DNA from: Candidatus Woesearchaeota archaeon
GTDB lineage: Archaea > Nanobdellota > Nanobdellia > Woesearchaeales > UBA9642
Reading direction: 5' to 3'
Length of the DNA: 64,000 nt
Assembly: GCA_016928115.1 (NCBI GenBank)
Contig: JAFGLI010000022.1
Location: forward strand, 560-64,559
In this document: piece by piece, positions 2,891 through 19,113 of the stretch
Position numbering within the stretch: the stretch's first letter is position 1
Layout: every line of letters begins with the position of its first letter
Made by a program: the position numbers and the translations under genes
Notes under the pieces: generated by a model
The model's input: only the letters and a program-made list of their open reading frames with translations
What the model was told of the DNA's origin: nothing
Database searches by the model: none

Positions 2891-3223
2891 ATGAAAAAAA
2901 GAGGAAGGCCTCTGGGCTCGGAAATAAGGCAGAATATTATTGAGATAGTTTATTTTATGAAAAAAGCCTACGGCTATGAAATATACAAAGAATATAATCA
3001 AATATTTCCTAAAATAAGCATGAGGTCAATCTATTATAATTTAAAAAAAGGAACTGAAACAGACGAGTTCATAATCAATAAAATAAAAACAAAAAAAGGA
3101 GATTATTCATGGGGCAGGGAATCTGAGGTAATCCAGTACAAATTAGGAAAAAATGCAATGCCTAAAATCCCTGATAATGTTAAAAAGCATTTCAATAAAA
3201 AAGAGGAAAAGGAGTTGCATTGA
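2891..3223 (+). CDS. PadR-like winged-helix transcriptional regulator (110 aa)
   Basis: 'GYEIYKEYNQIFPKISMRSIYYNLKKG' resembles the PadR wHTH core. Last 3 codons and TGA stop lie inside repeat element copy 1. Confidence 0.5.
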   Translation: MKKRGRPLGSEIRQNIIEIVYFMKKAYGYEIYKEYNQIFPKISMRSIYYNLKKGTETDEFIINKIKTKKGDYSWGRESEVIQYKLGKNAMPKIPDNVKKHFNKKEEKELH

Positions 3224-3384
3224 AAAAATCCTACTACGCTCATCACAACCCCACACTTTGTATGGGAACGTGGTAAGCTAAGTCTGGCCATGCCATGATT
3301 GCCAAAAAACAATCAATGACATTCACGGCACAGACGCACTTTTTCAATGCAACTGAGGAAAAAGAAAACATTAATAAATGAAAT
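3196..3384 (+). repeat. Repeat cassette copy 1: A-rich coding tail + stop, ~140-nt structured core, conserved 3' flank 'attaataaatgaaat'
   Basis: Aligns by eye to 18905..19113 across the full length with few substitutions. Differences are concentrated in predicted loops. Confidence 0.6.
3214..3353 (+). ncRNA. Candidate structured RNA/DNA element, copy 1 (unknown family)
   Basis: 14-bp terminal stem: gttgcattgaaaaa (3214-3227) pairs with tttttcaatgcaac (3340-3353). Internal helices: cccaca/tatggg, gtctggcc/ggcacagac with a 1-nt bulge, tgattg/caatca. Visibly GC-richer than its surroundings. Coding polarity unknown; the + strand follows the upstream gene. Confidence 0.45.
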
Positions 3385-10143: not shown

Positions 10144-11310
10144 ATGGAAAAAAGAGTTTCAGACATATTCAGGCTGATGAGGCCTTTTAATAAAAACGAA
10201 AGAAGGACTATAAGGGAATTAAGCAAATTCCTGGATAAAAAAGAGATGGGAGATGTTAAATATCTTCTCAAGCTCAGGAAGGTTTATATAGAAATCAAAC
10301 AAATAACCATAGTAAATTTCTCGTATCCCGTTATAAAAGCCCTGGATAAAGAAAGCAAAGAAGCCAAGAAGATAGCAGAATACTACAATAATAAGATAAA
10401 TGAAACAATAAGCAGGGAATTGTTCAGTGAGTTCTCAAAAAAATCTGAAAAAATAAAGGAATACATAGCCCCCAATATTGAGGGATTCGGTGATATAAAG
10501 GAAGCTTCCATGCTGCTGCTGTTCTCAGAAAAAATGCATATATTATTATTGGGAGACCCGGGAACAGGAAAAACTGAAATACTGCGTTATGTGGATAAAT
10601 TAGCGCCAATAAGCTCTTTTGGACTAGGCTCGGGAACCTCGGGAGTGGGATTGTCTATAAATGTACAGGGAAAAGAAGTAACAAAAGGGCTGCTTCCCCT
10701 GGCAAACAACGGCGTATGCTGCATAGATGAATTGAACCTGATGAAAAAACAGGATATGGCCTCATTATACAATGCAATGGAAAAGGGTTTTGTTACATAT
10801 GACAAGGGGAAAACTCATATCAGGATGGATGCAAAAATCAAAGTCCTGGCGACAGCAAACCCGCGGGGAGATAAATTCGAGGGTAAGAAAAAAGAAAAGA
10901 TAAGGGAGCAGCTGCCATTTGACCCTGCACTGCTTACAAGATTTCATATTGTTTTCTTTATAAGAAAGCCAGATATTGAAAAATTCATGAAGATAACCAG
11001 GAAAATAGTCAGGGATGAAAAAATAAATATAAAAGAAGAGGATATACATTTTATAAAAAAGTATATAGAATATGCAAAATCAATTGATGTCGGGCTTGAG
11101 CCTGAATTCGAAGCAAAGATAATTGAATTTGTCGAGGAAATAAAAAAAGACGAGAACAGTTTTATTGTTGATATAACCCCCAGAATAGTCAAGGGCATAA
11201 TCAATATCGCCAAAGCAAATGCAAGACTGCATTTAAGAAACAAAACAAGCAGGGAGGATATTGAGAAAGCAATAAATATCTTAAAGCACAGCCTATATAA
11301 TGTTTACTAA
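10144..11310 (+). CDS. MCM-family AAA+ ATPase lacking the MCM N-terminal domain (388 aa)
   Basis: Walker A 'LLLGDPGTGKTE', Walker B 'GVCCIDELNLM', 'KVLATANP', sensor-2-like 'ALLTRFHIVFF' and pre-Walker 'IAPNIEGFGDIKEA' all match the MCM AAA+ core. Only about 110 aa precede the ATPase domain, so there is no room for the OB-fold or zinc domain. Confidence 0.7.
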   Translation: MEKRVSDIFRLMRPFNKNERRTIRELSKFLDKKEMGDVKYLLKLRKVYIEIKQITIVNFSYPVIKALDKESKEAKKIAEYYNNKINETISRELFSEFSKKSEKIKEYIAPNIEGFGDIKEASMLLLFSEKMHILLLGDPGTGKTEILRYVDKLAPISSFGLGSGTSGVGLSINVQGKEVTKGLLPLANNGVCCIDELNLMKKQDMASLYNAMEKGFVTYDKGKTHIRMDAKIKVLATANPRGDKFEGKKKEKIREQLPFDPALLTRFHIVFFIRKPDIEKFMKITRKIVRDEKINIKEEDIHFIKKYIEYAKSIDVGLEPEFEAKIIEFVEEIKKDENSFIVDITPRIVKGIINIAKANARLHLRNKTSREDIEKAINILKHSLYNVY

Positions 11311-18316: not shown

Positions 18317-18931
18317 ATGGAAAAAAACAGGAAATCGAACTCAGAATCAGCATATTTCGGATTTGTTCTTCTGATTATTATTATAATGGCATTTCTGTTC
18401 TTCACTGCGCTGGGCAAAGATATAGAAAGGTCAGAAAAAACAGGGGAAAGGAACATTGACAGCAATGAAGTAATGTCTCTGGCAGGAATAATAATATTAT
18501 CACTTTCTGTTTTTGTTTTGATAATTCTGGTTGTATTCAGGTTCAACAAAGAAACCATGCCCCTCATAGGAAAATCCGGATTTACTCATGTAACCGGGCA
18601 TAAAAGAGAGCACCATCCCTCAAATTATAACCTGCTGAAAAGCAGGGTTGCAAGATATATGAAGAAAAAACTATCCCGGGAAGAGATCGAGGAAAAGATG
18701 GAAAAAGATGGATGGGAAAGGATAATAACAGACCTGGCAATATATGACATAAAGACAAAAGGAAAGACAAAAGGAAAAGACCTTGAAGGGTTCATAAAAA
18801 AACACCTTGGCAAAGGGTTAAAGAGTTCAAGGATAAGAAGCATTTTAGTTAATGCAGGGTGGAGTTCAAAAGAGATAAACAAGGTTATAATAGAGATGCA
18901 TGAAAAAAGAGCAAAAAAGGGGCTGCGTTGA
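18317..18931 (+). CDS. Membrane protein with basic C-terminal domain (204 aa)
   Basis: Two TM helices followed by a K-rich soluble domain. Last codons and TGA stop lie inside repeat element copy 2. Confidence 0.45.
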   Translation: MEKNRKSNSESAYFGFVLLIIIIMAFLFFTALGKDIERSEKTGERNIDSNEVMSLAGIIILSLSVFVLIILVVFRFNKETMPLIGKSGFTHVTGHKREHHPSNYNLLKSRVARYMKKKLSREEIEEKMEKDGWERIITDLAIYDIKTKGKTKGKDLEGFIKKHLGKGLKSSRIRSILVNAGWSSKEINKVIIEMHEKRAKKGLR

Positions 18932-19113
18932 AAAAGTCCTACTACGCTTACCACAACCCCACACTAAACTATGGGAACATGGTAAGCTCCGTCTGGCCAT
19001 GCCATGATTGTCAAAAACAATCAATGACATTCACGGCACAGACGAACTTTTTCAACGCAGCCCAGAAACAATAATTTTTTAAACTTCTTTTTAATATTAT
19101 TAATAAATGAAAT
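18905..19113 (+). repeat. Repeat cassette copy 2
   Basis: Aligns to 3196..3384. The 3' flank 'attaataaatgaaat' (19099-19113) contains the pgk ATG at 19107. Confidence 0.6.
18920..19063 (+). ncRNA. Candidate structured RNA/DNA element, copy 2
   Basis: 17-bp perfect terminal stem: gggctgcgttgaaaaag (18920-18936) pairs with ctttttcaacgcagccc (19047-19063). Internal helices are identical to copy 1, with variable loops (cttt g vs ctaaac; ccaaaaaa vs tcaaaaa). Confidence 0.45.

Follow-up and report, generated by a model that had tools for sequence, protein, structure and literature searches.

The stretch of DNA analysed here (hereafter the window), 64,000 nucleotides of a Candidatus Woesearchaeota genome, holds only housekeeping genes among its large ORFs, as judged by a Pfam scan. 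An earlier sequence-only reading had described a repeat with two copies amid these genes, and nhmmer bore this out: two element cores, at 3214–3353 and 18920–19063, are ~93% identical (E = 2e-49 and 3e-50) and spaced 15.7 kb apart, with no third copy within the 64-kb window. The cores are richer in G+C than the DNA around them (0.44–0.46 vs about 0.32), as had been noticed. The left stem arm of each copy supplies the TGA at which the upstream ORF now stops, also as first read: ORF 2891–3223 ends at the TGA of copy 1 and ORF 18317–18931 at that of copy 2, each truncated ORF gaining 3–4 new codons before it reaches the element's own stop. The label of PadR-like regulator once given to an upstream ORF has no Pfam support. 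The parts of the two copies and the host features beside them are the following, with P1 denoting the terminal stem and P2 and P3 the two internal arms.

3203–3211, no strand: copy 1, left member of a candidate target-site duplication, GAGGAAAAG; ambiguous against the relative's sequence
3211–3354, minus: copy 1 inserted segment, 144 bp; absent from the matching locus in two relatives, whose empty sites are L055 and L056
3212–3228, minus: copy 1 P1 arm, 3' strand of the terminal stem in folded orientation; holds the TGA at 3221–3223
3230–3238, minus: copy 1 conserved junction strand; CCTACTACG on the plus strand, CGUAGUAGG on the folded strand
3239–3277, minus: copy 1 variable arm P2; all 7 basal pairs covary family-wide
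3281–3337, minus: copy 1 arm P3; lower helix nearly invariant, upper helix with two registers
3339–3354, minus: copy 1 P1 arm, 5' strand of the terminal stem in folded orientation
3355–3364, no strand: copy 1, right member of the candidate target-site duplication, GAGGAAAAAG, from flank comparison; ambiguous against the relative
3371–3378, no strand: host TATA-like box TTAATAAA, 16 nt from copy 1, inside the 15-mer at 3370–3384; native
18914–19062, minus: copy 2 inserted segment, 149 bp; a relative lacks it between the membrane-protein gene and pgk
18920–18937, minus: copy 2 P1 arm; holds the TGA at 18929–18931
18938–18946, minus: copy 2 conserved junction strand (CCTACTACG / CGUAGUAGG)
18947–18986, minus: copy 2 arm P2, from the family structure alignment
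18990–19045, minus: copy 2 arm P3, from the family structure alignment
19046–19063, minus: copy 2 opposite P1 arm, from the stem comparison of the copies
19076–19083, no strand: host TATA-like box TTTTTAAA of pgk, 12–13 nt from the copy 2 insertion point; native
19099–19113, plus: 15-mer ATTAATAAATGAAAT with the pgk start codon; native, found also in the element-free relative

In the closest relative (GCA_964594025.1) both window sites are empty, and a third relative shows filled spacing at a window locus; by this comparison of genomes, both window copies are lineage-specific insertions. The same comparison redraws the borders of the element. An A-rich 5' tail and the 15-mer ATTAATAAATGAAAT, which had been counted into a cassette of 190 bp, occur in an element-free related genome and are therefore native insertion-site DNA outside the element, leaving only 144 bp and 149 bp as inserted DNA. 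At the copy 1 locus the relative's 15-mer carries the original stop of the upstream ORF (CAT TAA), and the ATG-AAA-TAA once read there as a decayed mini-ORF falls away. The related idea that the element brings its own stop and start context holds for the stop, which it supplies to two ORFs; it fails for the start, since the 15-mer and the pgk start codon are native. An mRNA intron restoring the original frame was rejected, as we found no bulge-helix-bulge motif and excising copy 1 leaves the relative's frame unrestored.

Beyond the window, pattern scans recovered 37 copies, from metagenomes and from MAGs of Woesearchaeota and Nanoarchaeota; 5 genome-scan loci and 29 metagenome-scan loci are real, and six bacterial genome-scan matches and one metagenome locus (L026) were discarded as chance matches inside G+C-rich genes. 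A covariance model, which the sequence-only reading had proposed building, was then searched with cmsearch against 314 kb and gave 39 family matches, each with E ≤ 4e-12 and none weaker. Both window copies match on the minus strand, copy 1 with 94.1 bits (E = 1.7e-20, model match 3350->3217) and copy 2 with 113 bits (E = 2.9e-25, model match 19058->18925). Across the family, units are 105–160 bp long and have no coding capacity, with only chance ORFs crossing them. The family had not been recognised at first sight, and the Rfam run agreed: no match to Rfam 15 reached the gathering score across the window, and the searches at relaxed thresholds gave nothing relevant for copy 1 at E ≤ 10 and nothing for 9 diverse loci at E ≤ 1. 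A tRNA/tmRNA search of the window found none, plasmid and phage collections contained no BLAST match, and viral contigs scanned for an 18-mer and for the family pattern showed chance matches at most. The literature on the host organisms, on MITEs and on strings of the element's sequence yielded no description of it.

We aligned the family with a hand-set structure and a covariance model, as MAFFT alone misaligned P1. The alignment supports a model in which the body folds as a three-way junction of P1, the variable arm P2 and the nearly invariant arm P3. In this alignment 92.7% of cells are paired, vs 72.7% after shuffling and about 40% when the partners are slid, and 26 of 41 pairs show changes on both sides, including 14/14 in P1 and 7/7 in P2; in these two stems the sequence varies and the pairing is kept. 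P2 ranges from 16 to more than 45 nt in length, with several types per genome, and the AGUAG of the junction strand is invariant family-wide. The upper helix of P3 can pair in either of two registers, A with a GUGA bulge and B with a UGGC bulge, and both are supported; P3 as a whole consists of two tandem 9-nt units and one inverted copy, which change in concert. Fold energies lie far below those of shuffled sequence (z = -5 to -11), on the plus strand as well.

The strong covariation seen in 31 distinct sequences supports the view that the fold is under selection. Selection for pairing had been proposed from two compensated differences between the terminal stems of the window copies. The stem is as described, with three paired differences rather than two, all of them matched (AGTTGCATTG vs GGCTGCGTTG); such changes alone cannot show selection for an RNA stem, and the choice between an RNA stem and co-varying inverted repeats is decided instead by the internal arms and the wider family. 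Two of the internal helices first described, gtctggcc/ggcacagac with its 1-nt bulge and tgattg/caatca, were found again. The third, cccaca/tatggg, contains a C-A mismatch on the plus strand; only when read on the minus strand does it pair cleanly, with U-G in place of the mismatch.

In the structural model it is the window's minus strand that folds, which runs antisense to the genes on either side. This orientation folds better in all 30 of 30 elements (mean -54.4 vs -41.7 kcal/mol), and the fold z-scores differ between the strands too (p = 1e-4). G-U cells outnumber A-C cells by 64 to 9, likewise favouring the minus strand, in an alignment that was itself fitted to that strand and in which many cells are inherited rather than independent. 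The suggestion that an RNA is processed from the sense transcripts of the upstream genes is thus contradicted, as the selected structure lies on the opposite strand. G-T pairs are tolerated in single-stranded DNA too, so these counts fall short of proving that the folded molecule is RNA, which is nevertheless the probable reading. We found no promoter inside the element or travelling with the unit.

The suspicion that the element is mobile was upheld: a close relative has empty sites at both window loci, and many copies elsewhere have unrelated flanks and flanking direct repeats. It has several of the features by which MITEs are known, namely small size without coding capacity, terminal inverted repeats, and unrelated flanks with empty sites. 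Every copy has P1 arms of 14–19 bp as a terminal inverted repeat. Many subfamilies end in GGCTYT...ARAGCC, and we take the termini to resemble IS6-family repeats, while the terminal sequence is not conserved between subfamilies. The outermost P1 bases differ among subfamilies and between both window copies, always matched on the opposite arm, which is unlike the usual behaviour of transposase-bound inverted repeats. One subfamily consists of 154-bp units nested in an outer inverted repeat, TAGTTWGCGACA (hereafter TAGTT-type); at least 9 near-identical copies of it, with unrelated flanks, occur in one pair of metagenomes, and 3-bp direct repeats border the unit at 6 of 9 loci. Direct repeats of roughly 9 bp, in some cases with a single mismatch or indel, flank at least 7 other loci: L020 matches at 9/9 positions, L041 and L044 at 8/9, and further cases are L019 and window copy 1, the latter ambiguous against the relative. 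The mean exact flank repeat is 3.52, vs 2.26 ± 0.30 in permuted flank pairs. Comparison of window copy 2 with the relative's empty site revealed no recognisable target duplication; this copy has 5–7 extra bases (AAAAAGG) beyond the stem, including five A's at 18914–18918. The Pfam scan of large ORFs detected no gene for a transposase, integrase or reverse transcriptase in the window, none lies among the genes next to the copies, and neither place yielded an autonomous partner whose ends match.

The neighbours of the copies are functionally unrelated (pgk, Yip1, TPR/pilus ATPase, UDP-glucose dehydrogenase, NUDIX), and no gene type recurs beside them, save TPR proteins and a T2SSE ATPase cluster at two loci. 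The geometry of insertion is regular. In 28/30 cases the 5' neighbour is a divergent gene, and in tandem gene regions 10 elements are antisense and 0 sense. Copies sit upstream of a TATA-like box at a short, fixed distance: the centre of the box lies at a median of -19 from the P1 end (the box being exactly 13 nt off in 7/9 TAGTT-type units and about 14–16 nt in others), and the next start codon follows 45–60 nt past the element. Selection alone could yield similar TATA spacing in tiny intergenic spacers, an argument that does not apply to the TAGTT-type units, which sit in spacers of 200–300 nt. The RNA module faces the neighbouring promoter in most members and faces away from it in TAGTT-type units; the orientation rule may therefore reflect the mechanism of integration rather than expression. 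Fixed promoter distance and orientation are also known from yeast Ty3, which inserts at Pol III start sites, and from Dictyostelium TRE5-A, which inserts about 48 bp upstream of tRNA genes; these are eukaryotic retroelements tethered by known protein contacts, whereas here the mechanism is deduced from spacing only. Rickettsia palindromic elements are likewise small palindromic mobile repeats that alter the end or middle of a protein, but they insert in frame and are translated, whereas the element here truncates the ORF through its own TGA and is placed by the next promoter.

We lean towards the interpretation, which we consider somewhat better than an even bet, that the repeat is a MITE-like non-autonomous element of DPANN archaea with a selected single-strand, probably RNA, fold. 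A transposase acting in trans would make staggered cuts of about 9 bp beside promoter DNA, and cuts at that position would explain both the clipped last codons of the upstream ORF and the distance of 45–60 nt to the start. The conserved fold would act single-stranded, most likely as RNA from the strand antisense to the flanking genes, with the invariant P3 as a putative binding site for a conserved partner; our preferred guess is a cargo or cofactor RNA serving the element itself. A bolder form of this proposal, which we regard as possible though doubtful, is that the conserved module is a functional RNA spread as mobile-element cargo, or is itself the transposition intermediate, that P3 is a switch or a docking site for a conserved archaeal protein, and that integration takes place at a measured distance from promoters bound by TBP/TFB.

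The alternative that fares best, though we think it unlikely, is that the repeat is a selfish palindromic MITE acting as DNA only, its pairing produced by template switching in quasi-palindromes and by co-evolving protein-binding motifs. The main MITE hallmarks are present, and the concerted 9-nt units of P3 fit iterated sites of one DNA-binding protein, which would explain the support for both registers. The bulges, a 4-nt asymmetric loop and specific G-U positions, however, persist family-wide and have not been evened out into perfect palindromes. P2 is free in length and sequence and yet always paired, with 7/7 pairs covarying, and the strand asymmetry described above (64 G-U against 9 A-C cells, 30/30 elements folding better on one strand) also tells against this alternative. 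The known elements closest to the family are prokaryotic MITEs that fold as RNA: Correia/NEMIS of Neisseria, the enterobacterial ERIC and SMAG of Stenotrophomonas. These too are small and ORF-less, with inverted termini, many intergenic copies, presence/absence among strains and a strong predicted hairpin when transcribed; their target duplications have a likely counterpart in the direct repeats that flank many copies here. Each is, however, essentially one long imperfect palindrome whose interior is not conserved between distant subfamilies. In the family described here it is the termini that diverge and the internal junction that is kept by covariation across distant lineages, and the junction recurs within inverted repeats of a second type, whose duplication length is different.

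A second alternative is a retro-mobile small RNA of SINE-like kind, in which an RNA with its ends at the base of P1 is reverse-transcribed and inserted at staggered nicks, and the termini retain their pairing rather than their sequence. The element does end within 0–2 nt of the P1 ends, its terminal sequences vary and covary, and its fold is strand-specific. The 7 extra bases of copy 2 (CCUUUUU in folded orientation) resemble the 3' flank of copy 1 (CCUUUUC), and a read-through transcript would produce them. SINEs and other retro-copies of small RNAs (tRNA-, 5S- and 7SL-derived) are likewise folded RNAs with paired ends, a conserved core and direct repeats. Unlike them, the element has no internal promoter, an A- or U-tail is missing from most copies, and no reverse transcriptase was identified in the window or beside any copy. 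The flanking repeats cluster at about 9 bp without wide variation, so that the duplication length looks fixed, and the TAGTT-type units show classical inverted termini and a 3-bp duplication. We judge this origin distinctly improbable. The absence of an adjacent reverse transcriptase and the housekeeping nature of the neighbours also led us to reject a retron non-coding RNA.

We consider it very unlikely that the copies are paralogues of an ordinary trans-acting non-coding RNA, gained and lost by rearrangement rather than transposition. A cellular RNA bound by protein would typically show strong covariation and an invariant arm, as the family does, and copies are few, just 2 in 64 kb and 3 detected in the relative. 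Against this, genomes with 81–86% identical proteins have no element positions in common, flanking direct repeats exist, at least 9 near-identical copies with unrelated flanks occur in one population, the insertions fall within the last codons of ORFs, and the unit carries no promoter along. Among known RNAs, 5S rRNA, marked by conserved loops C and E and a single type per genome, shares the three-way topology and the arm sizes; we rejected it because RF00001 gave no match even at E ≤ 10, P2 spans 16 to >45 nt and a genome holds several types. H/ACA and C/D guide RNAs, the K-turn, the hammerhead, group II domain 5 and the bulge-helix-bulge intron did not fit on inspection against their consensus sequences.

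A site of single-stranded-DNA recombination, like attC or the HUH hairpins of IS200/IS605, REP/RAYT and rolling-circle replicons, would also conserve terminal structure over sequence and favour one strand, and DNA hairpins tolerate G-T pairs. The plus-strand junction reads TACTACG, probably the sequence at which replicons of the pMV158 family are nicked. Integron attC sites, which archaea are reported to have as well, likewise lie at the 3' ends of ORFs, conserve structure more than sequence, fold better on one strand and may have a branched centre. The element differs from attC in having probable target duplications and in being without R'/R'' core sites, a cassette array or a nearby integrase: the termini of its copies differ from one another and misfit the RYYYAAC / GTTRRRY cores, and the window copies stand alone among housekeeping genes. 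No HUH gene lies near any copy either, and such systems are not known to leave duplications of the kinds seen here, about 9 bp and 3 bp long. The folded strand is moreover the template of the co-oriented genes, not the expected lagging-strand exposure if positive GC skew marks the leading strand. We give this alternative very little credence. A PATE derived from IS200/IS605 was rejected as well, since direct repeats flank many copies, a single stem closes the structure and the targets share no common tetranucleotide.

The least credible alternative, a sense-strand cis element in mRNA (a 3'-UTR stabiliser or terminator for the upstream gene, or a leader or riboswitch for the downstream one), would suit the position between a stop codon and the following start and a plus strand that also beats shuffles (z = -5 to -11), but the closest relative keeps the same genes without the element, the opposite strand is the selected one and the adjacent genes are functionally unrelated. 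A riboswitch or cis-regulatory leader in particular was rejected on the antisense fold in 10/10 tandem contexts, the unrelated neighbours and the relative's orthologous leaders, which have no element.

DPANN genomes are tiny and tightly packed, yet the reported density of MITEs is high in some, and the nature of these repeats is little known. One Woesearchaea genome was reported to carry MITEs in bulk, at 105 per Mb (PMC11602168). In the family described here, an RNA-like internal fold is conserved more deeply than the element's ends, with two registers kept by co-evolving repeats; the position of a neighbouring TATA-like box appears to set the insertion point, and the C-terminal codons of the upstream gene are rewritten. 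If the fold is that of an expressed RNA, it would represent a new class of structured RNA with a built-in means of spreading, and if tethering to the transcription machinery underlies the spacing, this would open a way to learn how mobile elements in archaea select safe sites. Should the bolder form hold, with an RNA cargo or intermediate and a set distance from TBP/TFB promoters, this would be the first promoter-tethered mobile element in archaea and possibly the first SINE-like RNA element there. The element also breaks assemblies, and a model of it is thus useful to annotators of DPANN MAGs.

The two copies proposed from the sequence exist where they were placed, with an identity of ~93% between their cores, and neither an exhaustive nhmmer search nor a later covariance-model search found a third copy in the 64 kb. 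The surrounding window is housekeeping DNA of a Candidatus Woesearchaeota MAG, with genes for PEP synthase/PPDK, GAPDH, PGK, Rpr2, a family B DNA polymerase, MCM, aminoacyl-tRNA synthetases and glycogen enzymes, and it encodes no transposase, integrase or reverse transcriptase. The finding holds up, and it is of greater interest than a two-copy repeat. The element is best classed among MITE-like mobile elements, as a family of DPANN archaea whose body is unusual: as judged from the aligned members, this is a single-strand three-way junction kept by covariation, one arm of which is nearly invariant and has two registers. As a side observation, the MCM homologue (10144-11310) has just 388 aa; its P-loop and lid domains are present, and its N-terminal domain was not detected by Pfam.

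Features of the window
3214-3353, plus strand: core of copy 1
18920-19063, plus strand: core of copy 2
3211-3354 (144 bp): extra segment at locus 1 relative to empty sites
18914-19062 (149 bp): segment at locus 2 absent from the closest relative
2891-3223 (stop 3221-3223): ORF upstream of copy 1
18317-18931 (stop 18929-18931): ORF upstream of copy 2
3196-3211 and 3370-3384: counterparts of AAAAGAGCA and ATTAATAAATGAAAT at locus 1
18903-18913 and 19099-19113: counterparts of AAAAGAGCA and ATTAATAAATGAAAT at locus 2
3205-3212: GAAAAGG adjoining copy 1
18914-18920: AAAAAGG outside the stem of copy 2
3281-3337 and 18990-19045, minus strand: two-register P3 arm

Both window copies are insertions. 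In GCA_964594025.1, the closest available relative (same gene order; PGK 86% and Yip1 81% identical to the window proteins), the membrane-protein gene is followed by pgk after 32 nt, the copy 2 segment is missing, and on both sides of it the relative matches the window base for base. At locus 1, a 112-aa ORF and Yip1 stand 36 nt apart in the same genome and in one JGI contig. The long spacing in a third relative (Yip1 87% identical) suggests that its site is filled. GCA_964594025.1, which supplied L012, L014, L015, L019 and L055 (L handles denote filled or empty loci in other genomes and metagenomes), carries the title 'uncultured Methanosarcinales archaeon'; this label looks wrong because its gene order and 81-86% protein identity match the Woesearchaeota window.

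The empty sites also redraw the element's limits. The sequence-only reading had proposed a 190-bp cassette that included an A-rich 'coding tail' and the 15-mer ATTAATAAATGAAAT and brought its own start context. Both sequences occur in the empty sites and are therefore native DNA; at locus 1 of the relative the 15-mer carries the stop that the ORF had before insertion (CAT TAA), and at locus 2 it carries the pgk start, so that the start context belongs to the insertion site. The TGA within the left stem arm does terminate both upstream ORFs, one of which had been called PadR-like, a description that finds no support in Pfam. At each insertion the ORF lost its last codons and received 3-4 new codons and the element's TGA instead. 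Of the three frames through each insertion, the truncated ORF uses the only one that reaches a stop 3-4 codons into the element; the remaining two stay open for ~20 codons or more. The two unrelated target sites have AAAAGAGCA followed by the 15-mer in common, already in the empty alleles (L055:~2150-2200; L012:~2860-2920), which by a rough estimate is unlikely to be chance. The AAAAAGG of copy 2 is absent from the empty site and resembles the GAAAAGG adjoining copy 1, as though a donor locus had contributed a few of its flanking bases.

A genome scan, for which a two-anchor pattern was set on the P3 arm, yielded three copies in GCA_964594025.1, at places other than the window loci, and one copy each in a Woesearchaeota MAG and a Nanoarchaeota MAG; six bacterial matches were dismissed as chance. 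A metagenome scan with a second pattern gave 30 loci, 29 of them real. The covariance model, built from 21 members with the structure set by hand, then matched 39 sites (E <= 4e-12) in 314 kb, with no further matches. None of the members corresponds to an Rfam family, nothing similar occurs in viral, plasmid or phage collections, and we found no description of the three-way-junction module in the literature. High MITE density has already been reported for a Woesearchaea genome in a bulk census (PMC11602168). The repeat breaks assemblies: contigs L001, L020, L025, L028, L037, L045 and L049 stop at the element or within it; L001, a Logan SRR13394437 contig, carries the window's pgk and begins within copy 2. 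An ordinary RNA gene family is one of the main rival readings.

The fold comprises a terminal closing stem (P1), a variable arm (P2) and the nearly invariant arm (P3). The terminal stem stands in both copies, but the paired differences between them number three rather than two (AGTTGCATTG vs GGCTGCGTTG), each compensated on the opposite arm. Across the model alignment (31 distinct sequences), standard pairs fill 92.7% of cells, compared with 72.7% for column shuffles and ~40% for slid partners, and both sides vary in 26 of 41 pairs: all 14 in P1, all 7 in basal P2 and 5 of 11 in the upper half of P3. The lower nine pairs of P3 are unchanged save for G-U, and the junction strand CGnAGUAGG is conserved in the family. 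P2 can be as short as a 16-nt hairpin or as long as a 45-nt arm, and one member has extra hairpins; these two (L054:806-963) lie between the junction strand and P3, making a five-way junction, so the P2 position tolerates insertions. The short P2 form (L029, L032, L033, L038, L040) ends in a conserved loop, C-GAAyAAAGUGA-G, in which tandem sheared G-A pairs might join GAA and AGUGA, like a loop-E or K-loop. The junction likewise contains AGUA opposite GAAG/GGAG.

Our main correction concerns the strand, as the fold had been read on the plus strand. The window-minus orientation is more stable in 30 of 30 distinct elements (means -54.4 vs -41.7 kcal/mol, Wilcoxon p = 2e-9), the strands likewise differ in their z-scores against dinucleotide shuffles (p = 1e-4), and the alignment holds 64 G-U cells vs 9 A-C. 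At the base of P3 an invariant A faces a T/C-variable position; read on the minus strand the two form U-A/U-G, whereas the plus strand would have a C-A mismatch there. All flanking genes of the window are thus antisense to the selected fold. The strand preference counts against two further main rivals, a sense-strand cis element and a palindromic repeat acting only as DNA. This preference is valid for RNA or single-stranded DNA and favours neither. A single-stranded-DNA recombination site is also a main rival; the plus-strand junction TACTACG resembles the pMV158 nick site. That the MITE-like element's fold is RNA rather than DNA is an inference, as would be any function ascribed to it.

On its 5' side, P3 is made of two 9-nt units in tandem, which vary together from one subfamily to the next, as in GUGGAUGC/AUGGAUGC and AUUGUUUGC/AUUGUUUAC; its 3' strand contains GGC twice and can therefore pair in two registers. 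Register A leaves a 4-nt GUGA bulge on the 5' side, and register B a UGGC bulge on the 3' side. Each is 93-95% paired with five covarying pairs, each exceeds 500 of 500 shuffles in covariation score, and their predicted energies differ by <= 2.8 kcal/mol in 20 of 31 members. The registers, available to both window copies and all family members, are mutually exclusive and nearly isoenergetic, maintained by concerted change of the two units and their single complement. They may serve as a switch or may instead reflect repeated binding motifs.

A 154-bp subfamily from metagenomes Ga0209541/Ga0209542 (L027:4557-4710; also L030, L031, L035, L039, L042, L050, L051, L053) encloses the module in a further inverted repeat, TAGTTWGCGACA, and has nine different flank pairs, with 3-bp direct repeats at six of nine. 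In the other members the base of P1 marks the ends of the element, and direct repeats of ~9 bp lie on either side; window copy 2 lacks such a repeat. The exact flanking repeat averages 3.52 nt vs 2.26 +/- 0.30 for permuted flank pairs.

Flanking direct repeats
L020: AAAAACAAT, 9/9
L041: GAGAATGGA/GAGAATGAA
L044: TATATAAAC/CATATAAAC
window copy 1: GAGGAAAAG/GAGGAAAAAG
L019: TGATGGTACA/TGATGTACA

The outermost bases GGCTYT...ARAGCC are common to many subfamilies, while others differ. Termini such as GGCTCTTGTGAAA and GGCTGCGTTGAAAA (L025:~150-170; window 18921-18935) resemble the IS6-family inverted repeat GGCTCTGTTGCAAA. Genes for a mobilising enzyme are absent from the neighbourhood of every copy. 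The MITE-like element would be moved by a transposase; a retro-mobile RNA is the remaining main rival.

Insertion sites are tied to promoters. Viewed in the folded orientation, 28 of 30 loci have their 5'-side gene on the opposite strand. Of the copies between tandem genes, 10 are antisense and 0 sense, and no copies lie between convergent genes. The best upstream TATA-like box is centred at a median of -19 from the P1 end (12 of 22 within -16 to -25), and the empty alleles of the two window sites put the point of insertion 12-16 nt away from a box of this kind. Among the 154-bp (TAGTT-type) units, 7 of 9 loci have a strong TATA-like box at exactly 13 nt from one end, and three of these loci also have an outward ATG at 43 nt. 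In the spacers of 200-300 nt found there, selection for compactness cannot account for this. For most members, an RNA riding on divergent transcription from the neighbour's TATA box is possible; however, the TAGTT-type subfamily does not support this idea. Module orientation relative to the promoter is opposite between these units and the other element type, so the orientation rule may belong to integration rather than to expression of the fold. At one TAGTT-type locus (L039), a box stands at 13 nt on either side.
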